From Cyanobacteria bacterium P01_H01_bin.15 (lineage in GTDB: Bacteria; Cyanobacteriota; Cyanobacteriia; Cyanobacteriales; JAAUTE01): 32,897 bases of DNA. The notes below the pieces were generated by a model, which worked only from the letters and a program-made list of their open reading frames with translations, made no database searches and was not told the origin of the DNA. The stretch spans positions 1 to 32,897 of the forward strand of contig JBCDHF010000003.1 in NCBI GenBank assembly GCA_038750375.1, written 5' to 3'. The position numbers and the translations under genes were made by a program. This document shows positions 10,991 to 32,897 of this stretch, piece after piece (the stretch's first letter is position 1; every line of letters starts with the position of its first letter).

Positions 10991-11255
10991 TGGCTGGGAA
11001 CTCGGGCTTGTGATCGCAGATTGAGCAATCATCGGTTTCCCAAACTGATTCACGCTTTTCAACGTTTACTTACAGCTAGCGTTGACCTCCAGGTTCTGTA
11101 GTTATAATCTATGGCGAATATCCGAGAGTAATTACTCACCTTACGGATACTGTTTATTTCGTCAGCTATCGAAACAAAACCTGTTTTTTGGAACGTTTTA
11201 GACTGCTCCAAATCCTCATAAGTAGCATCTTCTCCGGTTTGACTTTGTGCCTGCG

Positions 11256-12671: not shown

Positions 12672-12746
12672 TACAGCTCAGATCCGTAACCTGGGTTAGA
12701 GCCACTTTGTTTTCTTGCCGACCGTTCGTTCATTCATCGCCCGCCC

Positions 12747-16284: not shown

Positions 16285-18159
16285 ATGCATCCAGAAACAG
16301 TTGGTGATTCCCTTGCAACTTTGATCGCGGAGGTTAGCGGTCAATACCCCGAACAATTTGCCTTGCTAGCACCGGGCAGAGAGCCTTTAACGTTCAGTCA
16401 GTTACTATTCCATTTGGATAACGTCGCTGAACAGTTGTCTCAATGGGGGATCACGCCCCAGGATCGGGTGGCGGTCTCTTTGCCCAATGGCCCCCAGATG
16501 GCGACTGTATTTTTAGGCGTTGCACGCGTGGCTAGCTGTGCCCCCTTGAATCCCAACTACCGAGAGCCCGAATGCGAGTTTTATTTATCGGATCTCCAGC
16601 CCAAAGCGTTGATTGTTCAGCCCGGGATTGCAGATGCTGCCCGCGCAGTGGCTCTTAAACTCGGAATTGTCGTGTTAGAAATGTCGATTCCGGACAATGG
16701 TCCTGCCGGTGTTTTTGAACTTAAGAGCGACACCCCTTACTCATCGGAGCCGAGCTCGCAGCGGGGCAGCCCCGATGATGTTGCGTTAGTTCTCCATACT
16801 TCGGGCACCACTTCCCGCCCCAAAATGGTGCCCCTTACCCAGCGTAATCTCTGCCGATCTGCCCTCAATATTGCAGACACCTTAAGGCTCACCTCCCAAG
16901 ATCGCTGTCTCAATGTGATGCCTTTGTTTCACATTCACGGGCTGATGGGCTGTTTGCTTTCTTCAATCTCTGCCGGGGCTAGTATTGCCTGTACGCCGGG
17001 ATTCGACGCTGACAGCTTTCGAGACTGGTTAAAAGAGTGCCAACCGACTTGGTTTTCGGCTGTTCCGACCATGCAGCAGGCCGCTCTGACCCAAATTCAG
17101 CAAGGCGGTCTCCCGGATTGCCCACTTCGTTTTGTCCGCTCATCTTCTGCTGCGATGCCTGCCACCGTCTTAGCCGAAATCGAAAAAACCTATGGGGTTC
17201 CTTTAATTGAAGCCTATGGCATGACAGAAGCCTCCCACCAAATGACCAGTAATCCGCTTCCTCCGGCTCCCAGAAAACCCAAATCGGTCGGGGTGGCAGG
17301 GAAAACGCAAGTTGCGATCGCGGCAGCAGATCGTAATGAACTGCTGGCTCAGGGAGAAATCGGAGAGGTTGTCATTTGTGGGGGGGCGGTCACCCAGGGC
17401 TATGTGTCTAATCCGAAGGCTAATGCTACGGCCTTTTTTGAGGACTGGTTTCGAACCGGAGACCAGGGCTATCTCGATGAAGACGGCTATTTATTTTTGC
17501 AGGGACGACTCAAGGAAATCATTAACCGGGGCGGAGAGAAGATCTCGCCGCTGGAAATTGATGAAGCGTTGATGGAATTGCCAGCCGTGCATCAAGCCGT
17601 GGCGTTCGCGATGCCCCATCCCACTTTGGGCGAAGATTTAGCGGCGGCGGTTGTGCTAAAGCCAGACTCAACCACAACCCCGAGAGACTTGCGGGACTAT
17701 CTATTTGAGCGAATTGCTGACTTCAAAGTGCCCAGCCAAATTATTTTGGTCGAGCAAATTCCCAAAGGCGCCACCGGAAAATTACAACGCATTGGTCTAG
17801 CCGAAAAATTATCTTCACAACTTACCGCTGACTTTGTCGCTCCCCTCAATGAGACTGAACAAGCCATTGCCGCCGTTTTCCAAGAAATTCTCGGTTGCGA
17901 TCGCGTGGGAACCACCGAAAATTTTTTTGTGTTGGGTGGAGATTCCTTAAAAGGAACCCAAGTCACCTCCCGGTTGAGCCAACAATACGGAATCGAACTG
18001 CCCAATACCCAACTATTCCACTGTCCCACCGTGGTAGAGCTCGCCCAGGAAATTGAACGTTTGACTCGTGACGATGCTGCGATCGCAGACTTAGCGGACG
18101 AGCTAGCGGGACTCTCTCCCGAAGAACTAGAACAACTGCTGGCAGAAGCCGAGGGCTAA
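16285..18159 (+). CDS. Adenylation-thiolation didomain: oxalate-CoA ligase-like (AAE3/Pcs60-type) A domain fused to a carrier domain and an acidic docking-like tail
   Basis: DDVALVLHTSGTTSRPK, PLFHIHGL, WFSAVPT, LRFVRSSSA, EAYGMTEASHQMTSNPLP, INRGGEKISP and PKGATGKLQR match the oxalyl-CoA synthetase clade as I know it. The carrier motif FFVLGGDSL has its Ser codon at 17944. The tail is IADLADELAGLSPEELEQLL. Confidence 0.85.
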   Translation: MHPETVGDSLATLIAEVSGQYPEQFALLAPGREPLTFSQLLFHLDNVAEQLSQWGITPQDRVAVSLPNGPQMATVFLGVARVASCAPLNPNYREPECEFYLSDLQPKALIVQPGIADAARAVALKLGIVVLEMSIPDNGPAGVFELKSDTPYSSEPSSQRGSPDDVALVLHTSGTTSRPKMVPLTQRNLCRSALNIADTLRLTSQDRCLNVMPLFHIHGLMGCLLSSISAGASIACTPGFDADSFRDWLKECQPTWFSAVPTMQQAALTQIQQGGLPDCPLRFVRSSSAAMPATVLAEIEKTYGVPLIEAYGMTEASHQMTSNPLPPAPRKPKSVGVAGKTQVAIAAADRNELLAQGEIGEVVICGGAVTQGYVSNPKANATAFFEDWFRTGDQGYLDEDGYLFLQGRLKEIINRGGEKISPLEIDEALMELPAVHQAVAFAMPHPTLGEDLAAAVVLKPDSTTTPRDLRDYLFERIADFKVPSQIILVEQIPKGATGKLQRIGLAEKLSSQLTADFVAPLNETEQAIAAVFQEILGCDRVGTTENFFVLGGDSLKGTQVTSRLSQQYGIELPNTQLFHCPTVVELAQEIERLTRDDAAIADLADELAGLSPEELEQLLAEAEG

Positions 18160-18162
18160 GAC

Positions 18163-19908
18163 ATGACAGAGCCTGCAGATAGTCTTCTTCCGCAGTCACA
18201 ATCAGCTTCCTCGGACTCCCTTATCCGAAAATTGGAGCAGTTGACCCCTGCTCAGCGTCGACAACTCCGTCAAAAACTTGGGCAGCGATCGTTGAATGGC
18301 AACGACTTAATCGCCAAAGTGCTTAGTGCTCTAGGTATTACCCATGTCTATGGCATTTCGGGAGTGCCGGTTCATCAGTTACTGGGTCAATGTGCCCGAG
18401 CTGGTATTCGCGTAGTTTGTGGTCGTCACCAACAGGGAGCCACACTAATGGCTGCGAGCCATAATTACGCTGCTGGTAAGTTAGTCGCAGCCGTAATTGT
18501 GTCTTCGGGACCCGCGATTACCAACACAACCACGGGAGTCCTCGTTGCTTGGGATAATGCTTGGCCACTTTTAGTGATCGGTGGTGGTCGAGGCGATGGA
18601 CCGCCTGGCATGTTTCAAGCCCTTGATACTCAACCGATATTCACGCCAATCACAAAAGCCGTCTTTCATCTCTGCTCTGCTCAGGAGATTATTTCAACGC
18701 TGAGCAGAGCCGCTGATCTCGCCATCAGCGATCGCCCCGGACCCGTGTATATTGAGCTGGATCAATCAGTACTAACCCAAACCGCAAGCTTAACTGCCGA
18801 CCTTTCTCCACCCCGTCCGTCCTTCCCCTCATTCGAGCCAACTGCGATTGCCCAGGCTGCAGCCTTACTACAACAAGCCGAGCGCCCCTTATTAGTCTTT
18901 GGTAAAGGCGTGCGCTGGTCAGAGCCTTATGTCGAACTTGCTCAGCTAACCGGTTTAGGAATACCGTTTGTTGCCTCACCGATGGGACAGGGCTATTTGC
19001 CTGATGATGATTCAGCGAATGTTACCCCAGCGGGTTCTTTGGCTCTATCAACGGCGGACGTCGTTTTAAGTGTGGGAGCCCGTTGGAACTGGACTTTTCG
19101 CTTTGGGGCAGAGTTGGCTGAGAATGCCCAATTAATTCAAATTGATGTTCACGAGCCAGAATTGGGTTTGAATGTAAAACCCGCTGTGGGAATTGTGGGC
19201 GATGCGCAAGCGATTTTACAAGCCTTACTAATGAAATTGGGTTCCACTAGTTGGCAGTCAAAGTCTGGAACCGCAGCCTGGCGAGCGCAGCTCGCTACTG
19301 CGTCTCAAGAAAAACAGCAATATTGGCGATCGCGTATTGACCCGACTCAATTGCCCCTGAATTTGCAGACCATGTATGATGCCATTCTGCCTTTGCTGCC
19401 CCGGGACGCAATTACGGTCTTAGAGGGCAACTTCACCTTGGAAGCCGGACTCAGACTAGTGCCCTGTTACCGTCCAGCGAGTCGCTTTACGAATGGAAGT
19501 AATGGGTGTGTGGGAGTAGGGCTACCCTTTGCCATTGGGGCGAAAATCGCCAATCCTGATCGGCTTGTAATTGCTGTTAGCGGAGATTTATCCTTTGGAA
19601 TGACGGCGTTGGAACTGGAAACAGCAGTCAGATACCAGGTTCCCATCGTAATACTGGTTGCCAATAATCAAGGCTTTTGTGGATCTCTCTATCAACATCA
19701 GAACTATGGCATTGATTATCCCGAACGAGTCACGATGTTTGTCCCCAACGCCCAGTATGAAGTGCTCGCCACGGCATTTGGCGGATTCGGTGCAACTGTG
19801 CAAACGGCCTCAGAATTAACCGCCGCCATAACAGACGCAATTGCGGCAAATGTCCCGGCTTGCATTAACGTGCAAATTGACCCCACTGCACCCAACCCTC
19901 GCCATTAA
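18163..19908 (+). CDS. ThDP-dependent enzyme, oxalyl-CoA decarboxylase / 2-hydroxyacyl-CoA lyase-like, with an N-terminal docking-like extension
   Basis: GITHVYGISGVPV, SSGPAITN, WPLLVIGG, RPGPVYIEL, PLLVFGKG, SPMGQG, ADVVLSVGARWNW and the ThDP motif GDLSFG...ELETAVRY...NNQG. It reads RHQQ where the family has RHEQ/RNEQ. It starts 3 nt after the A-T gene stop. Confidence 0.85.
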   Translation: MTEPADSLLPQSQSASSDSLIRKLEQLTPAQRRQLRQKLGQRSLNGNDLIAKVLSALGITHVYGISGVPVHQLLGQCARAGIRVVCGRHQQGATLMAASHNYAAGKLVAAVIVSSGPAITNTTTGVLVAWDNAWPLLVIGGGRGDGPPGMFQALDTQPIFTPITKAVFHLCSAQEIISTLSRAADLAISDRPGPVYIELDQSVLTQTASLTADLSPPRPSFPSFEPTAIAQAAALLQQAERPLLVFGKGVRWSEPYVELAQLTGLGIPFVASPMGQGYLPDDDSANVTPAGSLALSTADVVLSVGARWNWTFRFGAELAENAQLIQIDVHEPELGLNVKPAVGIVGDAQAILQALLMKLGSTSWQSKSGTAAWRAQLATASQEKQQYWRSRIDPTQLPLNLQTMYDAILPLLPRDAITVLEGNFTLEAGLRLVPCYRPASRFTNGSNGCVGVGLPFAIGAKIANPDRLVIAVSGDLSFGMTALELETAVRYQVPIVILVANNQGFCGSLYQHQNYGIDYPERVTMFVPNAQYEVLATAFGGFGATVQTASELTAAITDAIAANVPACINVQIDPTAPNPRH

Positions 19909-19945
19909 CTTGGTTTGGCTACGCATATGTGCAGCAGCAATTATC

Positions 19946-21475
19946 ATGTCTGATTCGCCACTCTCTCGTAAACTCGCCAATCTCTCGCCAGTACAGTTAG
20001 CAAAATTGCGATCGCGGCTGAAGGCTAAACCGTCCGAGATTCAGCCTCGGTCGCAAGTCACCGACTTTCCCGATGACTTAAAACGTTCACTTAATGGTTT
20101 CGATGCTTGGAAGGCCACCCCTAATCAATCCCTGCTGTGGTTTTTAGATCAAAGTCTGGGATCTAATGCAGTCTATAACGTAGTGCGTTCAGTTCGTCTA
20201 TACGGTCCTTTAAATATTCCGGCGTTTCAACAGGCATTACATACGATAGTTCAACGCCACGAAGCTTTAAGGACGAATTTTCAGAGTATTGACCGCGTTC
20301 CTTATCAAATTATCGACAACAACAGCGATCGTTTCAAGGTGCCAGTCGTTGATTTGCGTTCAGTCGATCTAGCTCAAAAGGAATATGCATTACAAAAACA
20401 ATTTCGAGAACTTGGTCAGAAGCCATTTAATCTAGCTCAGGATTTGCTCATTCGCGTCACCATTATTCAACTCGATAATGACCGGTTCGGACTGTCGTTC
20501 TCCTTGCATCATATCATTTGCGATGGCTGGTCCCTGGGTGTTTTATCTAAAGAGCTCTCTACCTTATATCAGGCCTACTGCAACGGCCAAACTTCACCTT
20601 TGTCTCTACCTAAACTGCAATATGCAGATTATGGTCTCTGGCTGCAAACTGGGTTAAAGAAAGAATCACAGGAGCAAGCACGTCGCTATTGGCAGGAAAA
20701 ATTAGCAGGCGAATTGCCCATTCTAGAACTGCCTTGTGATCGCCCTAGAAAAAACGAGCAAACTTACAGTGGTCGCTTAACGACATTTGTTTTTGAGTCC
20801 GCATTATTCAACAGTCTTAAACAACTCGCTAATGAAACTGGAACGTCTTTATTTATGGTTTTATTGGCAAGTCTAAAAGTCTTGTTACATTGCTACACCC
20901 AACAGACTGATATTATCATTGGCTCGCCTATTGCCAACCGCAGCCGTCCTGAAATTGAGGGGACCATTGGCTTTTTTGTTGATTATTTGCCATTACGCAC
21001 CGATTTATCTAACAATCCATCATTTATTGAGCTGTTGACCCGGATACGCCAAACAACTCTAGACGCCTATACTCACGCCTATCCCTTTGCCAAGGTTCTC
21101 AGATTGCTAGAAGTAAAGCACGATCGCATCCGACCCCCTGTTTTCTCTGTGATGATGACGATGCAAAATGTTCCTTCCCCTGATTTAGAGTTAGACAGCG
21201 TAAAGCTATCCGGTTATCGGTCGACAGATAAACCGCCCATGTCTCGAACGTCAATTGTTGGCTATGAATTTCGCACCGATATTGAAGCAGCCCGGTTCGA
21301 CTGGACTATTTTGCTTAAAGAGAATCAAGGAGAGCTATCGGCCGTGTTTGAAGCAAATCGAGATCTGTTTGAACCAGAAACAATTCAACGAATCATCGAT
21401 TATTGGCAAACTATACTAGCGGCGATCGTCGCGAACCCTGACTACGCAATCGCAGAATTTTGCTCACCAAGTTAA
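19946..21475 (+). CDS. Stand-alone NRPS condensation domain protein
   Basis: ATG at 19946 (MSDSPLSRKLANLSPVQLAKLRSRL). Contains RHEALRTNF, intact HHIICDGWS, LQYADY, IGSPIANR and IGFFV, with no A or T domain. Confidence 0.9.
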   Translation: MSDSPLSRKLANLSPVQLAKLRSRLKAKPSEIQPRSQVTDFPDDLKRSLNGFDAWKATPNQSLLWFLDQSLGSNAVYNVVRSVRLYGPLNIPAFQQALHTIVQRHEALRTNFQSIDRVPYQIIDNNSDRFKVPVVDLRSVDLAQKEYALQKQFRELGQKPFNLAQDLLIRVTIIQLDNDRFGLSFSLHHIICDGWSLGVLSKELSTLYQAYCNGQTSPLSLPKLQYADYGLWLQTGLKKESQEQARRYWQEKLAGELPILELPCDRPRKNEQTYSGRLTTFVFESALFNSLKQLANETGTSLFMVLLASLKVLLHCYTQQTDIIIGSPIANRSRPEIEGTIGFFVDYLPLRTDLSNNPSFIELLTRIRQTTLDAYTHAYPFAKVLRLLEVKHDRIRPPVFSVMMTMQNVPSPDLELDSVKLSGYRSTDKPPMSRTSIVGYEFRTDIEAARFDWTILLKENQGELSAVFEANRDLFEPETIQRIIDYWQTILAAIVANPDYAIAEFCSPS

Positions 21476-21525
21476 GCCGTTTCTAGAGAAAGATTTACTA
21501 AAATTTATACCCAATCCTCCAAGTT

Positions 21526-24500
21526 ATGACATCTATAAACGATCGCCTCTCTAAACTCAGCCCAGCTCAGCGCCAACTGCTGACCCAAAAATTGCGGCAG
21601 AAACAGAGTCAGATTGCGCCACGCCCTGCTGAACAAAGCGCCTCTCTATCGTTAGCCCAGCAACGTCTGTGGCTACTCAATCGATTAGAGCCTGACAGTG
21701 CTGCCTACAATTTCCCTTGCTTTTTGTCATTCCAGGGCGACCTCAAAATCGACATTTTGGAACGCGCCCTGAACGAGATTATCCGTCGTCATGAGGTTTT
21801 GCGATCATGTTTTCCGGAAGTTGAGGGTCAACCCACTGTTGAAATAGCCACTGAACTCATACTCACGCTCCAACGCATGGATCTAAGCCAGCTAGCCGAG
21901 GCTGAACAACAACAAAGATTTCAGCAGCTGGCCCATCAAGAAGCCCAAGCTCCATTTGATATTACACAAGGACCCTTAATCCGTGCCAAGCTACTTTATC
22001 GTGGCCCACAGAACCATATCTTACTGCTGACGTTACATCATATTGTCTTTGATGCATGGTCTAGAGGGATTTTTAATCGCGAATTACAAGCTCTATATAC
22101 AGCCTTTGCCGAGAACAACCCATCGCCGCTTGCGGATTTACCTATTCAATACGCAGACTTTGCCTACTGGCAGCAGCAATGGTTGACGAACCAGAGAGTT
22201 CAGACCCAGTTAGGATACTGGCGTCAGAAACTAGCAAATATCCCCGCAGTATTGGAACTGCCTAACGATCGAGCACAGACAGCGACAAAATCGGATAGAG
22301 AGAAACATTTATTCTGGACGCTGGAGGCAGAGGAGACAAAGCGGCTTCAATCTTTTAGTAAAGAGCAAGGATGTACTGTCTTCATGACGTTGCTTGCCGC
22401 CTTCAAGATTTTATTGGCACGGTTATCGGGTCAGACCGATATTTTTGTGGGGATACCGGTAGCTGGGAGAACGCGCTTGGAAGTAGAACCATTACTGGGC
22501 TTCTTTGTTAATACTCTTGTATTGCGTAGTGACCTAGCATCAACACAAACGTTTACTCAACTGCTTGCTCAAGTTCGCGAAACTACTTTGACTGCCCAGG
22601 AAAATCAAGATGTTCCCTTTGAAAAGGTGATTGAGGAATTAAATCCAGAGCGAATTCTAAATCGCAAGCCCCTCTGTCAAATTTGGTTCAACATGGTAAG
22701 CCTCGCCGAAGAAAGGCCTTCGATCAAGGATCTTGAAGTAAAATCACTCCCGTTTAGACCTCCCAATTCTAAATTTGACTTAGGCGTTTATATAAGACAG
22801 CCCCAAACAAACTATCAAATTGATTTCGCCTACAGTGCTAACCTATTTAGCAAAGAGCGCATCGAAATATTGCTCGGGCAATATAAACAATTGCTGATGC
22901 AAGTCATCGAGCAGCCAGAAACTGCGATCGCAAACTACTCACTAGCCACACCCGGGCTGATAGCACAGTCGATTCTGCCAGATCCTAAACTCGCGCTAGT
23001 TGAGGAGCCTTTTGAGCCCGTAACTAAGCTGCTTACAACCTGGGCAGATCGTCATCCCGATTCCGTTGCGATTAGTCAAGGAGAGCAGAAGTGGTCTTAT
23101 CGGGAGCTGCGAGAAAAATCCTATCAATGTGCGCAAACGCTAATTGTCAATGGAATGAAGCCGGGAGATACGGTGGCAGTTTCCGGCGATCGTAGTTTTG
23201 GTCTGATTGTTGCAATGTGGGGCATTTTATTCAGTGGTGGCGTCCTACTTACTCTCGATCCGACCTTACCTCAGAAACGCAAAGAGAGAATGCTCGCGCT
23301 AAGTGAAGCGAAGTATATTTTGTACGTTGGCAATTTGCTTCCTGAGGATAACTGGCTAGAAAAGCAATCAGAATTACTTCATCTCAGCGCCCTAACGGGG
23401 GACATTAAAGATGACAAATTACTGACTGATACTGATGCTTCGCTTTCATTACCCGAACTGCAGCGTTCAGCGTATATCTTTTTTACCTCTGGGACCACGG
23501 GCACTCCCAAAGGAATTTTAGGAACGCATCAAGGTCTAGCCCATTTCTTATACTGGCAACGCCATACTTTTTCAGTCCAGCCGGGCGATCGGGTTGCCCA
23601 ATTAACAGGGCTCTCGTTTGATGTGGTTCTGCGGGAAATATTTCTGCCTTTGAGCAGCGGGGCAAGGCTGTGTCTTCCCCCTGCTTCAGCGGATTTGTCT
23701 CCAGTATCGATTTTGCCGTGGTTAGATCAGCAGCAAATTTCGATCCTTCACATTGTCCCTTCTCTAGCCCAAGTCTGGATCAACGATCTTCCAGAGCAAA
23801 ATTCTCTATCTAACTTGCGCTGTTTATTCTTTGCCGGAGAACCATTATTCGATAAATTAGTACTTCAATGGCGTCATTGCTTATCAAACAGTTGTCGAAT
23901 CATCAATCTTTACGGTCCAACTGAAACGACGCTTGCTAAATGTTATTTTGAAATCCCGAAAACGCCGCCTACAGGCGTACAGCCAGTTGGGACCTCCCTA
24001 CCCGGGAGCCAGGCGTTAGTTTTAGCAGATCATCAGCGTCTATGCGGCGTAGGGGAACCGGGCGAAATTGTGATCCGAACACCATACCGAACAGCTGGGT
24101 ATCTCAAAAATCCAGAAGAAAATACACGTCGATTTGTCCCTAATTCAGCTCGTGAGGATGAGAACGATCTGTTGTACTTCACTGGCGATAGCGGACGATA
24201 TCGCCCTGACGGGCAACTAGAGATCTTGGGTCGCTTAGATAATCAAATCAAAATCAGAGGCGTTCGGGTTGAATTAGGAGAAATTAGCAGTCTTTTAGAA
24301 GCAATAGAGGAGATCAAAAATCAGTTTGTAATGGTTCGGGAAGACACGCCAGATGACAAAAAAATTGTGGCATACGTGGTTCCTGCACCCGGCAAAACAA
24401 TTGAGACGTACAAACTTCGAGAACGGCTCAGATTACATCTTCCTCAATATATGATGCCCAGTGCATTTGTAATGCTACCCGTGCTTCCCCTCACTCCCAA

Positions 24501-27500
24501 TGGGAAAGTGGATCATCAAGCTCTTCCTGCACCAGAACCAGTCATCGATATCTCTGAATTTATTACGCCAGAGACTCCTACAGAAAAAACTCTCAGCAGG
24601 ATTTGGGAAGAGGTTCTGAATACAGAGCAGGTTAGCGCAACAGCTGATTTCTTTGAGCTAGGAGGCCATTCTTTACTTGCCGTGAAACTGATCTCACGAA
24701 TTCGGCAGCAGCTAGATTGTGAGATTCCTATTCGTGAGCTATTCGCTTGTTTAACTATAAGAAATCTTGCCAAGTACATTCACTCCAGATCAACTTCTTC
24801 TCCCGTTAAAAAACGCCTCTCTCAATTAAGTCCAAAACAGCATCAATTACTCGCTAAAAAACTAGAGCAGAGAAAAAATCAAATCTCCACTCAATCCAGA
24901 GATCCGGAAGCCCCCCTTCCTTTATCTCTGGCTCAACAGCGGCTATGGTTCATTGATGAATTAGAAGGTCAAAGTCCCCTTTACAATCTTTCTTTGATCC
25001 TGGAATTTGAAGGCGCGGTCAATCCAACTTTTCTGGAACAAAGTTTGCGCATCATTATCCAACGGCATAAAATTCTGCGCGCTCAAATCACCGCAGATGA
25101 CGGAATCCCTTGCCTAGCTTTTCGCGACGAGAGCACTTGGAAGTTTAACACCCTCGATTTTAGCCACATTCCGTCAGAAGACAGAGAAGCTCACGTTCAT
25201 CAAGCCCTGAAAGCAGAGCTGATGAGCCCCTTTGCTCTTAATCAGGATTGGCTAATTCGAGCCGCCCTACTCCAAAAGGATACAGAAAAATCAACGTTGG
25301 TAATTGTGACCCATCACATCGTTTCCGATGGCTGGTCTACTGGAATTTTACGCACCGAGTTATCAGCGCTTTATGAAGCATATGTTCAGAATCAAGAACC
25401 GTCTCTACCCCCGCTACCAATTCAATATGCCGACTATAGCATTTGGCAACGGCAGCAATTTGAAACAGATTACTTAAAACCCCATACTGATTATTGGCGG
25501 TTGCAACTAACAGGAACGCCTCCTCTCATAGAACTGCCCCTGGACCGCCCGCGCCCTGCAATTCTTTCCTATCGTGGACAGCATTTGCGTTCAGTCCTAA
25601 GTGCCGAACAAGCGTCAAAACTCACGAAGCTTGGTCAACAGCGGGGAATGACTCTATTTATGGTGCTGTTAGCCGCATTTCAGACTCTGTTATTTCGCTA
25701 TTCCGGACAGCCGGACATTGTTGTTGGAACCCCGATCGCTAACCGTAATCGGACAGAGATTGAATCGTTAATCGGTTTCTTTGCCAATACTCTTGTGCTC
25801 AGAAGCCAATTCGAGTCAGCCCAATCCTTTGAAGACCTTTTGTTCAAAGTTAAGGAAACTACCCTCAACGCATACGCTTACCAAGATTTTCCGTTTGAGC
25901 AAGTCGTAGAAATCCTTCAACCACAGAGGAATTTGAGCTACTCGCCTGTTTTCCAGGTGATGTTCGCGCTGCAAAATTTGCCGCCCGTCACTGAGACGCT
26001 AGGCGATATTACCTGGCAACGAATATCAGTCTCAACTGAAACCGCTAAGTTCGACTTAGGACTTTTCGTGCGAGAAGCTGCATCAGGGCTTAACTTAACT
26101 TGGGAATATAATACTGACCTGTTTGATATGGCAACTATCGAACGTATGGCTCAGCATTTTTCAGTGTTGCTCGACGGCGTTATTGCTAACCCAGCTAGAG
26201 AGATCGCTTGTTTACCCATCTTGACTGACCCAGAACGTTCTCACTTGCTGGTTGAATTGAACAATACAGCAACAGATTATCCACGGGATAAGTGCCTCCA
26301 TGAGCTGTTTGAAGAGCAAGCCAGAAAGACACCAAATACGATCGCGATCGAGGATCACAACCAATCCATAACCTATCAGGAGCTGGATCAGCAGGCTGAA
26401 CAATTGGCTGCTTATCTGGGCTCAAAAGGAATTGCGGTCGAGTCAACGGTTGGTCTGTTTCTGGATCGATCCCTGTCAATGATAATTGCCGTTCTTGCGA
26501 TCCTAAAAGCGGGGGCGGCGTATGTGCCATTAGATTTAAACTATCCGGCCGCTAGAATTGAATATATGTTGTCCAATTCCGAGGCGAGTCAGGTTCTGAC
26601 AACCCGCTCACTGTCTGGTCGGCTACCCGCCTCAATCACAACGATCTGTATTGATCAACCGCTTACTGCTCCCATCGCTCACACCCAAAGCGCACAGGCA
26701 AGTCCAGATAACTTAGCTTATCTTATCTATACGTCTGGTTCAACGGGGAAACCCAAAGGCGTTGCAATGACTCATAAGACTTTAGTCAATCTCATTCAAT
26801 GGCAATGTGATCAGTCAGAATCCCAACAACGAACTCTCCAATTTTCGCCCATTAGTTTTGATGTGTCCTGTCAAGAAATATTCTCTACTTGGGCATCCGG
26901 CGGAACTCTCGTCTTAATTACAGAAGAAACCCGTCAAGATTTTGGCGCTTTCTTTGATTATTTGACCCATCAGAAAATTAATCGACTCTTTTTGCCCTTT
27001 GTCGCACTTCAAGGACTTGCTGAAATTGGTCAAAATCGCGATTTTCCTGGCTCTTTGCAGGAAGTGATCACGGCGGGTGAAGCGCTTAAGATTAGTCCTG
27101 CGATCGCAAAATTTTTCGAGAAAGGGTCTAGCTGTCGTTTGCAAAATCAGTATGGCCCTTCAGAAACGCATGTAGCCATCGCTTTTTCGTTAACTGGAGC
27201 ACCAGACACTTGGGCAACATTTCCGCCCATTGGCCAGCCTATCGCCAATGCCCTTGTTTACTTGCTGGATGGCATGCATCAAATTGTTCCGATTGGCATT
27301 CCTGGTGAAATATATATTGGTGGAACTGCGATCGCACGAGGCTATCACAACCTACCGGAGCAAACTGAAGCTAAGTTCATTGATAACCCATTTGGGCCAG
27401 GGCGTCTGTACAAAACGGGAGATTTAGGACGGTACCGAACCGATGGTGCAATCGACTACCTTGGTCGGTCCGATCGCCAAGTCAAAATACGAGGATTCCG

Positions 27501-29031
27501 CATTGAACTTGGTGAAGTTGAAGCGCAGTTAAATGCCATGCCCGAGATCAAGACAGCCATTGCGGTGGTTCGAGAGGATCAAACAGGGGATAAGCGCTTA
27601 ATCGCTTATGGCATACCCAAACAAAGGGAAACAATCGATATAAGGATGTTAAAAGCCTATTTGTCAGATAAGCTGCCAGACTACATGATTCCAGTTGCCA
27701 TTGTTTGTCTAGACAAATTTCCAGTAACACCCAGCGGCAAAATAGATCGCAAAGCTCTTCCCACACAAGAATTTCAAACAGATGATATTGCTGTCGCCCC
27801 ACGGGACCCGTTAGAACGACAGCTCGTCGACATTTGGCAACGCATTTTGGGGCTCCAATCAATCGGCATCCAAGATGACTTTTTCGAGCTGGGAGGACAC
27901 TCACTATTAGCGGTAAAACTCTTCTCAGAGATTGAGAAAACCTGTAATGAAAAGTTACCCCTCGCAACCCTATTTCAGGCTCGTAATATCGCAGAACTGG
28001 CGACTTACATCCGCGAGCGCCGCTTTGAAGAACATTCTTGCTTGATTCAGATGCAGACTATGGGCGAGCGCCCGCCTTTATTTTTCCTACCGCCTGCGGG
28101 GGGACATATGCTCGTATATGAGCGTTTAGCAAATAATCTCGGGCCCGATCAACCTATGTATGGTCTGGAATTCCAGGCTTCTGCCAATGACGATGCTCAG
28201 GGCAGTTCAATCAAAAATACGGTCAGCGAATTTATTCGCGCCATGCGCCAGGTGCAACCCAATGGACCCTATCATTTAATCGGACTTTCTTTTGGTGGAC
28301 TCCTCGCTTGGGCTGTTGCTGAAGAATTACAACGCCAGGGAGAACCTTTAGCAACCATTATTCTCCTGGATTGTGCAGCTCCTGGCACGACGAAACGCTT
28401 AACAGGTTTTCCTCGCTTTATTGCGGTGGCTTCTTGGGTGATATATGAACGAGTGCGTCACTTCTGGCGTATTTGTAGAGATGATGTCAAAAAGCGACTT
28501 CATTCAAAAAAACTCAATTTAGAATCTAGAAAACCCACCTCATCCTCTGTCCAAACAAAAGATCAAGTTCAACAACACAAGTTACAACAGCAAGTCCAAG
28601 ACATCGTAGAAAGTCTAAAAAGTGCTCATGGAGGAAATTGGCAAAAGTGGTTGGACTATTGGGGAGCGAGACTAGTGACCCTGACCGAATCGAAGTATTT
28701 GGTCAAACCGATTTATGGAGGACAGCATTATCTAGATGATATCCGTGACTTCCTTGATGATAGGACTTTAGAGGTTTTACAAACGAAGTATAACTTATTA
28801 AAAAGGTATCAACCGGGACCCTTATCCTGTCCAGTCCTGGTATTTCGAGCAACAGAGCGGATCCCGAGCTTAAAGACCAGTTTTACAATGGGTTGGGAAC
28901 CATTTGTTCAGAAAGAACTGAAAGTCATTCCAATTCATGGAGGTCACCATACTATTGTGACCTCGACCAAGTTAGCAACGCAGTTAGCTCGCTATCTTGA
29001 TATTATTCATCAAAATCAATCAAGCAAATAG
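21526..29031 (+). CDS. Two-module NRPS, C-A-T-C-A-T-TE
   Basis: C1 HHIVFDAWS; A1 FTSGTTGTPKG and YGPTE; T1 GGHSL (about 24661); C2 HHIVSDGWS; A2 YTSGSTGKPKG with a proline-like pocket; T2 GGHSL (about 27892); TE GLSFGG (28282) and a C-terminal His (GGHH). Confidence 0.96.
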   Translation: MTSINDRLSKLSPAQRQLLTQKLRQKQSQIAPRPAEQSASLSLAQQRLWLLNRLEPDSAAYNFPCFLSFQGDLKIDILERALNEIIRRHEVLRSCFPEVEGQPTVEIATELILTLQRMDLSQLAEAEQQQRFQQLAHQEAQAPFDITQGPLIRAKLLYRGPQNHILLLTLHHIVFDAWSRGIFNRELQALYTAFAENNPSPLADLPIQYADFAYWQQQWLTNQRVQTQLGYWRQKLANIPAVLELPNDRAQTATKSDREKHLFWTLEAEETKRLQSFSKEQGCTVFMTLLAAFKILLARLSGQTDIFVGIPVAGRTRLEVEPLLGFFVNTLVLRSDLASTQTFTQLLAQVRETTLTAQENQDVPFEKVIEELNPERILNRKPLCQIWFNMVSLAEERPSIKDLEVKSLPFRPPNSKFDLGVYIRQPQTNYQIDFAYSANLFSKERIEILLGQYKQLLMQVIEQPETAIANYSLATPGLIAQSILPDPKLALVEEPFEPVTKLLTTWADRHPDSVAISQGEQKWSYRELREKSYQCAQTLIVNGMKPGDTVAVSGDRSFGLIVAMWGILFSGGVLLTLDPTLPQKRKERMLALSEAKYILYVGNLLPEDNWLEKQSELLHLSALTGDIKDDKLLTDTDASLSLPELQRSAYIFFTSGTTGTPKGILGTHQGLAHFLYWQRHTFSVQPGDRVAQLTGLSFDVVLREIFLPLSSGARLCLPPASADLSPVSILPWLDQQQISILHIVPSLAQVWINDLPEQNSLSNLRCLFFAGEPLFDKLVLQWRHCLSNSCRIINLYGPTETTLAKCYFEIPKTPPTGVQPVGTSLPGSQALVLADHQRLCGVGEPGEIVIRTPYRTAGYLKNPEENTRRFVPNSAREDENDLLYFTGDSGRYRPDGQLEILGRLDNQIKIRGVRVELGEISSLLEAIEEIKNQFVMVREDTPDDKKIVAYVVPAPGKTIETYKLRERLRLHLPQYMMPSAFVMLPVLPLTPNGKVDHQALPAPEPVIDISEFITPETPTEKTLSRIWEEVLNTEQVSATADFFELGGHSLLAVKLISRIRQQLDCEIPIRELFACLTIRNLAKYIHSRSTSSPVKKRLSQLSPKQHQLLAKKLEQRKNQISTQSRDPEAPLPLSLAQQRLWFIDELEGQSPLYNLSLILEFEGAVNPTFLEQSLRIIIQRHKILRAQITADDGIPCLAFRDESTWKFNTLDFSHIPSEDREAHVHQALKAELMSPFALNQDWLIRAALLQKDTEKSTLVIVTHHIVSDGWSTGILRTELSALYEAYVQNQEPSLPPLPIQYADYSIWQRQQFETDYLKPHTDYWRLQLTGTPPLIELPLDRPRPAILSYRGQHLRSVLSAEQASKLTKLGQQRGMTLFMVLLAAFQTLLFRYSGQPDIVVGTPIANRNRTEIESLIGFFANTLVLRSQFESAQSFEDLLFKVKETTLNAYAYQDFPFEQVVEILQPQRNLSYSPVFQVMFALQNLPPVTETLGDITWQRISVSTETAKFDLGLFVREAASGLNLTWEYNTDLFDMATIERMAQHFSVLLDGVIANPAREIACLPILTDPERSHLLVELNNTATDYPRDKCLHELFEEQARKTPNTIAIEDHNQSITYQELDQQAEQLAAYLGSKGIAVESTVGLFLDRSLSMIIAVLAILKAGAAYVPLDLNYPAARIEYMLSNSEASQVLTTRSLSGRLPASITTICIDQPLTAPIAHTQSAQASPDNLAYLIYTSGSTGKPKGVAMTHKTLVNLIQWQCDQSESQQRTLQFSPISFDVSCQEIFSTWASGGTLVLITEETRQDFGAFFDYLTHQKINRLFLPFVALQGLAEIGQNRDFPGSLQEVITAGEALKISPAIAKFFEKGSSCRLQNQYGPSETHVAIAFSLTGAPDTWATFPPIGQPIANALVYLLDGMHQIVPIGIPGEIYIGGTAIARGYHNLPEQTEAKFIDNPFGPGRLYKTGDLGRYRTDGAIDYLGRSDRQVKIRGFRIELGEVEAQLNAMPEIKTAIAVVREDQTGDKRLIAYGIPKQRETIDIRMLKAYLSDKLPDYMIPVAIVCLDKFPVTPSGKIDRKALPTQEFQTDDIAVAPRDPLERQLVDIWQRILGLQSIGIQDDFFELGGHSLLAVKLFSEIEKTCNEKLPLATLFQARNIAELATYIRERRFEEHSCLIQMQTMGERPPLFFLPPAGGHMLVYERLANNLGPDQPMYGLEFQASANDDAQGSSIKNTVSEFIRAMRQVQPNGPYHLIGLSFGGLLAWAVAEELQRQGEPLATIILLDCAAPGTTKRLTGFPRFIAVASWVIYERVRHFWRICRDDVKKRLHSKKLNLESRKPTSSSVQTKDQVQQHKLQQQVQDIVESLKSAHGGNWQKWLDYWGARLVTLTESKYLVKPIYGGQHYLDDIRDFLDDRTLEVLQTKYNLLKRYQPGPLSCPVLVFRATERIPSLKTSFTMGWEPFVQKELKVIPIHGGHHTIVTSTKLATQLARYLDIIHQNQSSK
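21715..21749 (+). repeat. 35-bp exact direct repeat shared by the 5' C-domain regions of the two NRPS genes (second copy 30372-30406)
   Basis: CCTTGCTTTTTGTCATTCCAGGGCGACCTCAAAAT occurs at both positions, inside a longer region of high similarity. Confidence 0.9.
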
Positions 29032-29334
29032 ATATATTTGATTCCTTTCTGCGATGACTAGGGGGTGGTCAATATTCAAGTTGAGACATTGTGCGATCGA
29101 GGGAGGTTCGCTAGTGGATAACCTCTTTAATTGTGACACTTTGTTTATTTAGGTGATTTGCTTGATGAATAAGTTTAGGGAATTAAATCCGCCTATCAAA
29201 TTCACCGTGGCTGCCACTAGGCATTAAAAGCGCTTTTTTGATCAGAATCAACGCCGTAATTTTACTTGTTCTGCACTGACTTTAGGACAGGATGTCCGAC
29301 AATAGTGACGAAAACTAAATCTCAATCAGAGGCT

Positions 29335-30180
29335 ATGCTTAAGCACTCCGGCGATCGGCTTCGCTCACTTCTGGGTTCAGCGGAAACCATTCCGTTTATG
29401 GGCGTTTATGATGCCTTTTCTGCGGCGATCGCCGGGAGATACTATCAGAACCTATTTGTTAGCGGTGATGGCTTCGGGGTTAGCTACTATAGCTTACCTG
29501 ATATTGGGTTTATTGCCTGGGTAGATATGGTGAACTTCGTAAAGCAGCTCTGAACAATTCTCCCAGAGCACCTCTCTCTTATTGGTTGATATTGATGATG
29601 AATATGTTGATGTGCAGACAGCTTGCCATGTTGTTCGCCGACTAGAACAACTTTGCGCTGCGGGTGGAATTCTCGAAGATCACCCCCCCCCTGGCGATGC
29701 TGCCATGCCGATGGTAAGCAGTTACTCGATAGTGATAGCTACTTGGAAAAACTTGCTGAGGTCCTAGCAGCTAGGGAGCGTCTCTTCGTCCTGGCTCGTA
29801 CTAATGCCACAGATCCAACGGAAATTATTGAGCGGAGCAAGCGTTATGCGAATGCTGGAGCAGATGCAGTGCTGGCTGATGGCATTACTGATTTAGCTAT
29901 TCTTAAAACCTTGTAGAGCGAAGTCTCAGTTCCCATCGTTTTTAATCAAATCGCGGGCGGGAAATCGCCTACCTGCAACCTGACAGAGCTTAGTAATATC
30001 GGGGTCTCCCTCGTGAACTACAGCACCCCATGTTTGTTCGCGGTCCAAGATGCTATTGCGACAGAAATGGAACGACTTTCTTGGGCAGATGGTAAGTTGG
30101 GGGAGCGAGGCTGGTCCGATTGTAACCCAGTCCTTCAAGAGTCTCTAGAAAAGATCACGCATTCACGATCACGCGATTAA
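29335..30180 (+). pseudogene. Disrupted isocitrate lyase/PEP mutase superfamily gene, lyase branch (methylisocitrate lyase / oxaloacetate acetylhydrolase-like)
   Basis: Pieces in three frames join to GVYDAFSA...LPDIG...VDIDDEY...LEDHxxxWRCCHADGK...ARTNA...GADAV...FNQIAGGKSP. Lesions are TGA at 29551-29553, a frameshift in the CT run near 29572-29581, a frameshift in the C9 run at 29683-29691 and TAG at 29914-29916. The natural stop TAA is at 30178-30180. Confidence 0.85.
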
Positions 30181-30182
30181 TC

Positions 30183-32897
30183 ATGGCTTCTCTAAACGAT
30201 CGCCTTTCTCAACTCAGCCCAGAACAACGTCAACTGCTGGCAAAAAAACTGCGACAGAAGCAGAGTCACATTTCGCCAAGACCCGCTGGACAAAAGACCA
30301 TCCTTTCCTTTGCCCAACAAAGAATGTGGTTGTTATATCGACTAGATCCTGATAGTGAAGCCTATAATTTTCCTTGCTTTTTGTCATTCCAGGGCGACCT
30401 CAAAATTAAAGTTTTGGAGCGCGTCCTGAACGAAATTGTTCGTCGTCACGAGATTTTGCGATCGCGCTTCCCTGAAGTCAATGGGGAACCCACTGTAAAA
30501 ATTATTGATGATTTCAAGTTGACCTTAGAGCCAATTAGTCTTGAAAATCTAGACCGAGCCGAGCAGCAGTCTCGTGTTCAACAGTTAGCTAGTCAAGAAG
30601 CAAAAAATCCCTTTGACATCACGCAAGATGCTCTAATTCGAGGAAAAATTTTAACTCTTGATGATCATCAATACGTTTTGCTACTAACCCTTCATCACAT
30701 TATTTTCGATGGCTGGTCCGAGGGGGTATTTAAACAAGAGTTAGAGAGCCTATATGACGCATTTTCTCAAGGCAAACCATCTCCTTTACCGGAATTATCG
30801 ATACAGTATGCAGACTTCGCCCACTGGGAGCGGCAATGGTTAACGACCGAACGTGCTCAAACTCAACTTGACTATTGGAGTCAGAAATTAGCAGGCATGT
30901 CGCCCTTACTTGAGCTGCCCACAGATCGTCCGCGTCCGGCTATTCAAACTGACAAAGGCGATCGCGTTTTTTGGACTCTAGGTAAGTCAACTACAGAGAA
31001 TTTGCGAGAGCTCAGTCAAAAACAAGACTGCACATTATTTATGACATTGATGGCAGCCTTCCAGATATTGTTATTTCGATATTCTGGACAAGAGGATATT
31101 GCCGTTGGTACGCCTATTGCCAGTCGAATAAGACCCGAGATTGAGGGAATAATTGGTTATTTTGCTAATACCTTGATATTGCGAGAGACATTATCTGATG
31201 AGATGGCGTTTAATGACCTAGTACAACAAATAAAAGAAACAGCACTAGCCGCCTATAATCATCAGGATATTCCATTTGATCGACTAGTACAAAAACTTCA
31301 ACCTACGCGAAATACTAGTTTTTCACCCTTGTTTCAAGTGGTTTTCGCGCTGCGGCCTAATAATTTTACCAGCGACACACGTTGGCAACAGCTTTCCTTA
31401 AACCCAAATACAGCAAAGTTTGATCTTGAAGTTAATCTCCGGGAAGATGATGAGGAGCTAACGGGTTACTGGGAATATAATACAGACTTGTTCAATCGCG
31501 ACACCATTGAACGAATGTGCAAACATTTTACAGTTTTACTGGCTGGAATTTTAAAAAATCCAGCCATGTCGATTTCCCTGTTGCCATTGCTGACGAATGC
31601 AGAACGACATCAATTATTGATCGAGTGGAACAATACTGCTACGGACTATCCTAAGGATAAATGTATTCATGAACTTTTTGGGGAGCAAGTTTCAAAAACG
31701 CCTGATGTGATCGCGGTAAGCTACGACAAACAATCGCTGTCCTACTGTGAACTTAATCAGGAAGCCAATCAACTAGCTCAATATTTACAATCGATACATG
31801 CACAAGCAAACTCACGAATTGGGATTTGCCTGGAGCGCTCAAACAGTGCCATCGTAGCGATTTTAGGTGTACTTAAAGTTGGTTGTCTTTATGTCCCACT
31901 AGATCCTCACTATCCTACTGAGCGCTTGCAGTTCATGGTTGATGATGCTCAAATATCGATCATTCTATCTAATTCCCAAACTCAGTATGCGATTGATAAG
32001 CTTTCTATCAACACCAGTATTACTTCGATTGTGAAGATTGATCGTGTTGTGTATTCCGAGTCACAAGAGAGTCTTAGCCTTGCTGTAAAATCTCACCAAG
32101 GAGCATATATTAACTATACGTCTGGCTCTACCGGTGTCCCCAAAGGCGTCCTTGTCCCTCATCGTGGGGTTATCCGTCTCGTTCGCAATACAAATTATAT
32201 TGATATTCGGCGAGGCGATCGCGTCGGACAAGCGGCAACGCTAGCTTTTGATATGGCAACCTTAGAAATTTGGGGTGCTTTATTAAACGGAGGATCCATT
32301 ATTGGTATTCCGAAAGAGACCCTGCTCGACCCCTGGGCATTAGCCCACACGATTCAAAGAGAACATATTAATGTATTGGTTGTCCCAACTGCCGTATTGC
32401 ACAAAATAGCAGAAACTGATTCAACAATCTTTTCTACTTTAAAGTGCTTAGTATTCGGTGGTGAAGCGGCGTCTCCCCACTGGATCAAACGAATTCTGAA
32501 ACATGGTGCACCCCAAAGCTTAGTGAATGGTTACGGACCTACGGAGAATACTGCCATCAGCTCTGCTTATGTTGTTGCTGAGATAGCTGAAAATGCAACG
32601 ACTGTCTTGATCGGCAAACCAATTAGCAATAGTCGTTGCTATGTGCTTGATAAAAATCGTGAGTTAGTCCCTATTGGGGTTCCTGGCGAACTATATGTAG
32701 CTGGAGATGGGCTCGCAAATGGTTATTTATTCCGTCCACAAGCCTCCGCAGAAAAGTTTATCCTCCATGAGTGGGAAAAAGGAAATGTTGAGCGGCTCTA
32801 TCGTACGGGTGATTTAGTCCGATATCACGCAGACGGCAATTTAGAGTTTGTTGGACGGCAAGATTCTCAAGTTAAAATTAGAGGTTTTCGTATTGAA
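30183..32897 (+). CDS. Second NRPS (C-A...), 3'-truncated by the window edge
   Basis: Not in the ORF track because no stop falls in the window. ATG at 30183 gives MASLNDRLSQLSPEQRQLLAKKLRQK, followed by HHIIFDGWS, YTSGSTGVPKG, NGYGPTE and YRTGD, and stays in frame to QVKIRGFRIE at 32897. Confidence 0.95.
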   Translation, partial: MASLNDRLSQLSPEQRQLLAKKLRQKQSHISPRPAGQKTILSFAQQRMWLLYRLDPDSEAYNFPCFLSFQGDLKIKVLERVLNEIVRRHEILRSRFPEVNGEPTVKIIDDFKLTLEPISLENLDRAEQQSRVQQLASQEAKNPFDITQDALIRGKILTLDDHQYVLLLTLHHIIFDGWSEGVFKQELESLYDAFSQGKPSPLPELSIQYADFAHWERQWLTTERAQTQLDYWSQKLAGMSPLLELPTDRPRPAIQTDKGDRVFWTLGKSTTENLRELSQKQDCTLFMTLMAAFQILLFRYSGQEDIAVGTPIASRIRPEIEGIIGYFANTLILRETLSDEMAFNDLVQQIKETALAAYNHQDIPFDRLVQKLQPTRNTSFSPLFQVVFALRPNNFTSDTRWQQLSLNPNTAKFDLEVNLREDDEELTGYWEYNTDLFNRDTIERMCKHFTVLLAGILKNPAMSISLLPLLTNAERHQLLIEWNNTATDYPKDKCIHELFGEQVSKTPDVIAVSYDKQSLSYCELNQEANQLAQYLQSIHAQANSRIGICLERSNSAIVAILGVLKVGCLYVPLDPHYPTERLQFMVDDAQISIILSNSQTQYAIDKLSINTSITSIVKIDRVVYSESQESLSLAVKSHQGAYINYTSGSTGVPKGVLVPHRGVIRLVRNTNYIDIRRGDRVGQAATLAFDMATLEIWGALLNGGSIIGIPKETLLDPWALAHTIQREHINVLVVPTAVLHKIAETDSTIFSTLKCLVFGGEAASPHWIKRILKHGAPQSLVNGYGPTENTAISSAYVVAEIAENATTVLIGKPISNSRCYVLDKNRELVPIGVPGELYVAGDGLANGYLFRPQASAEKFILHEWEKGNVERLYRTGDLVRYHADGNLEFVGRQDSQVKIRGFRIE

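Follow-up and report, generated by a model that had tools for sequence, protein, structure and literature searches.

The stretch analysed here, referred to as the window, is the whole of contig C3 (JBCDHF010000003.1; 32,897 nucleotides, or 32.9 kb) of a 4.68-Mb assembly of Cyanobacteria bacterium P01_H01_bin.15, which consists of 615 contigs and is 93.6% complete. The right half of the window is a nonribosomal peptide synthetase (NRPS) cluster in which a loader protein, made of an adenylation (A) domain and a carrier or T domain, ends in an acidic tail, and in which the neighbouring proteins carry five copies of a basic element with the motif L-S/T-P-x-Q. The explanation that we prefer, with a probability of about 0.6, is that the tail and the basic elements form a helical docking pair of the class 2 / PAX type which would link the loader to a thiamine diphosphate (ThDP) enzyme and to condensation (C) domains, with oxalyl-type chemistry taking place on the carrier. 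Docking domains set which peptide or polyketide subunits communicate, and pathway engineering uses them as portable parts. In this cluster a helical docking pair of a known kind extends to an oxalyl-CoA-decarboxylase-like ThDP enzyme, a class from which such a pair is not known, and if this enzyme works on the carrier it would provide a new on-line tailoring step and a simple case of one tail with several partners.

The loader gene (16285..18159, on the forward strand like all the window features given below) encodes a protein of 624 residues with an AAE3-like (oxalate-CoA-ligase-like) A domain, a T domain and the acidic tail, a putative C-terminal docking domain (CDD). The tail (...DLADELAGLSPEELEQLLAEAEG*) is encoded at 18070..18156, with the stop codon at 18157-18159, and is composed of two helices joined at an L-S-P turn. 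The next gene (18163..19908) encodes the ThDP enzyme, a member of the Oxc/HACL family (Pfam TPP_enzyme_N/M/C) with an N-terminal extension of 43 residues. This extension holds the first putative N-terminal docking domain (NDD), which as a whole occupies 18202..18279 in the form helix, L-T-P turn, helix and has its core, RKLEQLTPAQRRQLRQKL, at 18226-18279. A stand-alone C protein (19946..21475) carries the element RKLANLSPVQLAKLRSRL at 19967-20020 (44.2 bits; net charge +7). NRPS1 (21526..29031), which according to Pfam and its translation has the order NDD-C-A-T-NDD-C-A-T-TE, TE being a thioesterase, has one copy at its N-terminus, DRLSKLSPAQRQLLTQKL (21541-21594; found by both pattern and profile), and an internal one, KRLSQLSPKQHQLLAKKL (24811-24864), in the linker between T1 and C2. 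The fifth copy, DRLSQLSPEQRQLLAKKL (30198-30251), was found by the pattern at the start of NRPS2 (30183..32897; NDD-C-A... by Pfam), the reading of which stops at the contig end; as the gene runs off the contig, the C-terminus of NRPS2 is unseen. These six elements had been claimed in a sequence-only reading of the window, and translations and a pattern search recovered every one of them at or near the positions given there. The positions 18226 and 24811 are correct, whereas 19946, 21526 and 30183 are gene starts and the motifs begin further 3'.

Searched in all six frames, the window has exactly these six matches to the pattern L[ST]P.[QE]...L. From the frequency of the pattern in the remainder of the genome 0.68 matches would be expected (Poisson P(>=6) = 8e-5), and shuffling the residues of the five proteins 2000 times gave on average 0.08 matches and never more than 2. 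Genome rate and shuffles together rule out a chance origin of the motifs. When the genome was searched with a profile of the five basic copies, these scored 44-50 bits, and an NRPS on contig C132 proved to start with a sixth basic copy (42 bits). The best of all other matches in the 4.68-Mb genome had 11.5 bits. The acidic tail of the loader and the basic motifs have the L-S-P helix-capping turn in common and are opposite in net charge, with -9 for the last 28 residues of the loader vs +4 to +7 for the six NDDs. The claim that within the window only the loader ends in an acidic helix is borne out by a CDD profile, the best 60 matches of which include no other open reading frame (ORF) of the window, the C-terminus of NRPS2 being unseen.

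The basic L-S/T-P-x-Q element fits a two-helix NDD of the class 2 / PAX type, and the acidic tail of the loader fits the matching CDD of this type. According to the rule described for type 2 CDDs (PMC11221535), hydrophobic residues are placed at i, i+3 (in the loop), i+8 and i+12, and an acidic residue precedes the first. In the loader tail, ...D-E-L-A-G-L-S-P-E-E-L-E-Q-L-L..., four leucines stand at the type 2 spacing with a glutamate before the first, and the hydrophobic columns are kept across the 18 tails of the CDD alignment. The CDD profile scores the loader tail at 31.0 bits. In an AlphaFold2 (AF2) model of the T domain and tail, with a predicted local distance difference test (pLDDT) of 91, a continuous helix (69-94) starts as T helix 4, extends into the tail and is followed by a turn at L-S-P and by a second helix (98-109), the pLDDT of the tail being 75-82. 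The top Foldseek match of this model is the PaxA T1-CDD (7B2B chain A; E 1e-6, TMq 0.74, root-mean-square deviation 4.8), and the alignment to it, with 97 columns, is the longest among the matches listed.

NDDs of the type 2 family consist of one or two helices ahead of the first catalytic domain and keep one or more basic residues in the second helix. The NDD profile was built from 24 sequences, in which the only invariant columns are the L and P of the turn, with R/K after them. Among the sequences of the PDB it matched the CurG-CurH fusion 4myy in its CurH part ('QQIKQLSPLQRAALALK'; E 0.024) and the N-termini of the polyketide synthases (PKSs) 6h0q (E 0.021) and 8h6s_C (E 0.073), while the CDD profile gave a weak match to the PaxB/PaxC fusion 6trp (E 0.14). 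No significant match resulted when the PDB was searched with single sequences, namely the NRPS1 N-terminus, the ThDP extension and the loader tail. Against 1.84 billion representative sequences the NDD core profile retrieved 363 proteins at E <= 1e-3, and N-termini of Cur-like PKSs were found in this large library at E 1e-5 to 5e-5. A Pfam scan covered 37 of the 38 matches of at least 250 residues among the best 150. The NDD stands directly before a C domain in 16 of the 37 proteins scanned, before the ketosynthase (KS) of Cur-like PKSs in four, before an A domain in two and before a ThDP enzyme in one; it is internal and before a C domain in two, follows an A domain in one, and occurs in tandem arrays with no Pfam family in eight, the remaining three being unrelated LTXXQ-type repeats. 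With an iterated profile the NDD was found to start ThDP enzymes and C-starting NRPSs in many loci, and the CDD lies at most 13 residues from the C-terminus of T-ending proteins. Both kinds of ends also occur head-to-tail on contig C16 of the same genome, where gene 8927 has its head opposite the tail of gene 4395 and its own tail opposite the head of gene 16036. The proposal that the motifs are docking elements with the loader tail as their acidic counterpart agrees with class 2 / PAX-type docking domains; in treating the motif as unclassified the same proposal has to be amended, since it belongs to a known docking class.

Proteins with tandem copies are worth describing on their own. Proteins P0125-P0130 and P0132 (635-860 residues) have four to seven NDD-like units in tandem at the N-terminus, followed by an acidic region and a hydrophobic C-terminal part, and no Pfam family was found in them at 1e-5. 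A possible role is that of a scaffold with several sites for acidic docking tails. Natural fusions of a CDD to an NDD were sought in the collected loci, the genome and the protein sets, and none was found there. In addition, the N-terminus of the ORF from 3118 on contig C92 presumably resembles a docking domain of the TubC type, with a beta-hairpin; if it is of that type, the genome has at least two docking classes.

In the PaxA T1-CDD/PaxB NDD pair (7B2B; Watzel et al. 2021), as described in PMC8251938, the last T helix likewise leads into a short acidic C-terminal helix, and the partner is a basic two-helix N-terminal peptide with a proline kink that stands before a C domain. The proline kink and basic residues of the PaxB NDD are reported there to matter for binding, which takes place by salt bridges and hydrophobic contacts; we count this mode of binding as a likeness, predicted here from sequence and model. 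The window differs from PaxA/PaxB in the greater length of the loader tail, with its clear second helix beyond the L-S-P turn, and the sequence identity is low (31% over T domain and tail). Moreover, a ThDP enzyme is among the putative partners and several NDDs would face one tail.

The class 2 docking domains of the Cur system (CurG/CurH and CurK/CurL; 4MYY and 4MYZ, Whicher et al. 2013, as described in PMC9113145 and PMC11221535) share with the window the L-S-P-x-Q-R turn of the NDD and the two-helix acidic CDD with hydrophobic residues at the spacing given above (PMC11221535), and the NDD profile retrieved N-termini of Cur-like PKSs. The CurK CDD is reported in PMC9113145 to bind more than one NDD. 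According to these descriptions the Cur domains serve junctions between an acyl carrier protein (ACP) and a KS in dimeric PKSs and form eight-helix bundles via an NDD coiled coil, whereas in the window NRPS T domains serve as carriers, and the ThDP enzyme and C domains, the latter probably monomeric, serve as acceptors. The PaxB CDD/PaxC NDD pair (6TRP; Watzel et al. 2020, via PMC9113145) is similar in its V-shaped two-helix CDD after the T domain and its basic helix before the C domain, but it is described as a three-helix bundle in which the NDD is a single helix, unlike the two-helix NDDs of the window. More distant likenesses are the enacyloxin system, where a short linear motif of the peptidyl carrier protein and the beta-hairpin docking domain of a stand-alone C protein also let a carrier-terminal element bring in a separate enzyme, and the promiscuous docking of rhabdopeptide NRPSs, where a small terminal element recruits several alternative subunits (both as described in PMC9113145 and PMC11221535). 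In the enacyloxin type, as described, a beta-strand inserts into the hairpin, whereas here helices pack. The class of the docking pair is thus already known from Cur class 2, PaxA/PaxB and PaxB/PaxC, and the motif is ordinary for specialists. What is new is a docking domain on an Oxc/HACL-like ThDP enzyme beside an oxalate-type loader, in a cassette found across many phyla, and likely also that an enzyme and at least one C domain use the same tail.

The chemistry proposed for the pair rests on the families of the two proteins. In the loader Pfam recognizes AMP-binding (18-373), AMP-binding_C (424-499) and PP-binding (526-589), and no NCBIfam model reaches its cutoff. The best solved relatives of the A domain are oxalate-CoA ligases (5ie0, 386 bits; 8aff, 371; 6qjz, 371), vs 207 bits for malonyl-CoA synthetase, the best single-domain relative of other activity, and 265 bits for the multidomain NRPS LgrA. 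This A domain is fused to the T domain, with no release of a CoA ester. The ThDP enzyme has TPP_enzyme_N at 45-144 plus the M and C domains, and its best relatives in the PDB are Oxc/HACL chains (254-287 bits). The NCBIfam equivalog model for oxalyl-CoA decarboxylase scores 326 bits on it vs a cutoff of 557, so it is to be regarded as a member of the family and not as an Oxc equivalog.

The solved Oxc/HACL enzymes align with the ThDP enzyme only from its residue 40-51 on and none of them matches the NDD profile, as expected if enzymes of this family lack the extension. The ATG of the ThDP gene lies 3 nucleotides past the loader stop, with GAGGG 7 nucleotides upstream of it. Both this spacing and the conservation of the motif in homologues (27 of 119 at >=10 bits, among them P0007, P0008 and P0024) place the motif within the translated protein, as the sequence-only reading had supposed. 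In the closest homologues the extension appears by eye about as conserved as the core. A short form of the enzyme starting from a TTG at residue 44 could in principle exist. The AF2 model of the enzyme (mean pLDDT 83) has a helix at 14-25, the L-T-P turn at 26-28 and a second helix at 29-39 before the catalytic core, with a pLDDT of 55-76 in the NDD region. A docking helix on the ThDP enzyme suggests that it works directly on the assembly line and, from this domain and the gene neighbourhood, we infer that its substrate is a T-bound thioester. In loci L017 and L049-L052 the ThDP extension keeps the second helix only ('ERARQLLLERL') and the loader has a full acidic tail; such one-helix extensions resemble the one-helix NDDs described for CurL and PaxC.

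When species-representative genomes were scanned with a pattern, 41 loci resulted, which span Binatia, Chloroflexota, Nitrospirales, Acidobacteriota, Gamma-, Beta- and Deltaproteobacteria and cyanobacteria. Many of these loci have a close loader homologue (about 550-740 bits) adjoining the ThDP gene within an NRPS cluster. Within the order to which the window belongs, the ThDP gene was found at E <= 1e-100 in one genome out of 61, the window's own, and the relatives found in a metagenome scan were only 39-49% identical; neither search yielded the cluster in complete form. In the literature collection searched there was no description of the loader and ThDP cassette, and searches for an oxalyl or ThDP step on NRPS carriers turned up only the formyl-ACP route of lactacystin, which uses a formyltransferase and an acyltransferase domain.

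The two ends could both be read in 27 cases, that is, in 26 loci and the window. The loader CDD and the ThDP NDD are both present in 15 and both absent in nine, and three have the CDD with a short or atypical ThDP extension; a ThDP NDD without a loader tail was found in none (0/27). This co-occurrence is not taken as statistical proof. In the metagenome loci L043 and L047 the NRPS beside the ThDP gene has no NDD, and therefore the ThDP NDD is there the sole unpaired partner for the loader tail. In loci L001 and L003 docking pairs are present at other junctions, yet they are missing from the loader, from the ThDP enzyme and from the first C-A-T that follows it. Within nine loci the NDD of the ThDP enzyme resembles that of the first C domain (mean BLOSUM score 40.7 within loci vs 31.1 +/- 2.4 across loci), and none of 7389 derangements reaches the observed score. 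The earlier claim which tied the ThDP motif to the loader tail is strengthened by these clusters, L043 and L047 included, where the motif accompanies the tail.

Several observations weigh against our reading. The matches of the NDD and CDD profiles to PDB sequences are marginal (E 0.02-0.14), the carrier-protein fold supplies most of the Foldseek score, which was obtained with a predicted model, and the L-S/T-P-x-Q turn alone is not diagnostic, because the profile also matches the unrelated LTXXQ-type repeats. The co-occurrence of the two ends also clusters by phylogeny. A tree built from 35 ThDP catalytic parts shows two changes in the state of the loader CDD and five in that of the NDD. There are three independent pairs, of which one changes in the same direction and two show no difference, and with only three pairs a sign test cannot reach significance. 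In addition, seven of the 15 calls of both ends present were made by eye, the tails of L014, L015, L023, L028, L031, L033 and L035 scoring 0-3.7 bits. The likeness of NDDs within a locus may reflect a common amino-acid composition or local copying, not a shared partner. Docking-free clusters, from Nitrospirales and others, keep the cassette, and docking is therefore not essential to the partnership of loader and ThDP enzyme. A five-spoke hub in particular is opposed by the fragmented assembly, with NRPS2 cut, and by one-to-one pairing as the norm elsewhere. Finally, the score matrix reveals no specificity code that separates partners among the NDDs of the window, the NDD of the ThDP enzyme scoring 42 with that of the stand-alone C protein and 50-61 with those of NRPS1, NRPS2 and the C132 paralogue. 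A private code 'RKL...LR..L' common to the ThDP and stand-alone C NDDs was also considered and was rejected, as the matrix does not support it.

With these reservations, the docking pair may be pictured as follows. The T domain of the loader would continue from its last helix into the acidic two-helix CDD, and the ThDP enzyme, the stand-alone C protein, NRPS1 and NRPS2 would each present a basic NDD made of a helix, a proline kink and a second helix. The hydrophobic face of the NDD and its Arg/Lys residues would pack on the hairpin formed by T helix 4 and the CDD, away from the phosphopantetheine arm. The resulting small helical bundle is expected to be of moderate affinity and to exchange quickly, so that one loaded carrier could call first at the ThDP enzyme and afterwards pass its acyl group on to a C domain. 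The loader would make oxalyl-S-T, and a conversion on the carrier, most simply decarboxylation to formyl-S-T, would precede condensation. An oxalyl-to-formyl step is likely because of family membership only, the loader A domain being oxalate-CoA-ligase-like and the ThDP enzyme Oxc/HACL-like.

The sequence-only reading had seen in the tail and the five copies a hub-and-spoke assembly. This holds in part: the loader tail likely docks the ThDP enzyme and at least one C domain, whereas the use of this one tail by all five NDDs is unlikely. A minimal hub, in which the ThDP enzyme and the C domain that accepts the unit share the tail, is to be expected from the pathway logic, agrees with these data and is likely. 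A five-spoke hub is no more than a possibility, as the contig is cut, with the C-terminus of NRPS2 missing, and as the internal copy in NRPS1 looks like a fusion relic. The T1-C2 linker which contains that copy has about 43 residues, vs about 22 in the other cis T-C linkers of the genome, and the copy has no free end and no CDD before it. N-terminal NDD-C-A-T subunits encoded elsewhere in the genome align to NRPS1 from residue 1090-1094, and comparable internal copies are found in P0146 and P0265 (PEP mutase-NDD-C-A-T). The internal copy is probably a relic of the fusion of two NDD-C-A-T subunits.

A wider hub is favoured by the fact that NRPS1, the C132 paralogue and the fragments on C247 and C297 all end in a TE and therefore cannot feed one another. 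Furthermore, all six NDDs of this system are strongly basic, and T-ending proteins that carry a CDD-like or acidic tail are confined in the assembly, besides the loader, to the C16 and C4 clusters, where they have downstream heads of their own. In its fullest form this would make the oxalate-loading carrier a hub on which the AAE3-like A-T loader produces oxalyl-S-T, the docked Oxc-like ThDP enzyme converts it on the carrier to a one-carbon (formyl) or a ThDP-derived acyl unit, and the same tail feeds the stand-alone C protein and parallel TE-terminated NRPSs (NRPS1, NRPS2 and the C132 paralogue), giving N-capped short peptides. We regard so complete a scheme as quite improbable. If it were true, it would amount to a carrier-bound, folate-independent route to a formyl starter, in a cassette present across many bacterial phyla.

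The strongest competitor of the shared tail, although an unlikely one in our view, is ordinary one-to-one docking with no hub, where each NDD would have its own CDD, mostly beyond the cut contig, and only the NDD of the ThDP enzyme or that of the stand-alone C protein would use the loader tail; the unseen C-terminus of NRPS2, for instance, could feed NRPS1. On C16 of this genome and in loci L003 and L043 subunits as a rule pair head-to-tail, one to one, the window's NDDs are not separated by a specificity code, and an incomplete assembly in 615 contigs with NRPS2 cut leaves room for further CDDs. Against these points stand the TE ends just mentioned, which leave NRPS1, the C132 paralogue and the C247/C297 fragments with no donation to another subunit, and the restriction of the other CDD-like or acidic T-ends to C16 and C4, with their own heads. 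The charges also differ, being +4 to +7 in the six NDDs considered here vs 0 to +1 in the NDDs of C16.

We consider it very improbable that the basic element serves the domain behind it as a structural cap or as a linker, that is, as a hairpin steadying the N-lobe of the C domain or spacing T from C, and that the acidic tail is unrelated to it. The copy in cis in NRPS1 (24811-24864) and the internal copies of P0146 and P0265 would suit such a role, and the L-S/T-P-x-Q turn is a common helix cap, present as well in the unrelated LTXXQ proteins. The element is, however, internal in only two of 25 long matches of NRPS/PKS type and it precedes four unrelated folds, namely C, KS, A and ThDP. In sequence it matches the CurH NDD, which has been defined by experiment, and it has a proline kink flanked by basic residues, as described for the PaxB NDD. 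Moreover, its confidence in the AF2 model of the ThDP enzyme is below that of the core (pLDDT 55-76 vs 83 overall), and its presence or absence follows that of acidic tails on the preceding subunit.

Enzymes of the Oxc/HACL family are oligomers, which counts for the least probable of the alternatives, namely that the ThDP NDD serves self-association, as a coiled coil within the oligomer, or a partner other than the loader, with the enzyme acting on CoA thioesters. The second NDD helix of class 2 PKSs is described as a coiled coil in the KS dimer (PMC9113145) and docking-free cassettes exist, but the absence of any ThDP NDD without a loader tail (0/27), the loader tails of L043 and L047 with no other NDD nearby, and the T domain of the loader, with no release of a CoA ester, make it very improbable.

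With regard to the remaining genes, the stand-alone C protein is an orthologue of the C domain in the C-A-T module of locus L012 (560 bits). The ORF list gives it a TTG start at 19841, inside the end of the ThDP gene, and in this TTG-based ORF the Pfam Condensation domain covers 92-539; the ATG at 19946, which lies after the ThDP stop and before the NDD, is likely the true start.

Directly 5' of NRPS2, and outside the docking system, is a decayed gene of the phosphoenolpyruvate (PEP)-mutase/isocitrate-lyase family (29371..30153). It has 41% identity to P0265 over 267 residues, with stops and a frame break (tblastn), and Pfam detects in it a fragment of PEP_mutase (31.1 bits). On contig C132 an intact copy of a PEP-mutase-family gene (345-1127) is located directly before the NDD-C-A-T-TE paralogue, and in the library protein P0265 a domain of this family is fused to NDD-C-A-T. 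Some members of the PEP-mutase/isocitrate-lyase superfamily produce oxalate, and an oxalate-making member would suit an oxalate-type loader.

Directly 5' of the loader gene, on the same strand, positions 11247-16067 encode an HlyD-family membrane-fusion protein and an AcrB-type RND transporter, and this efflux pair may export the product of the cluster. Further paralogues of the N-lobe of NRPS1 and NRPS2 are encoded on contigs C377 (1867-) and C117 (-11217), the NDD of the former being degenerated ('SFSKFNQENRQKLTDKF') and the latter being without one. With these two paralogues the genome has at least five related NRPSs, and those seen at full length, namely NRPS1 and the ones on C132 and C117, have a TE at their end.

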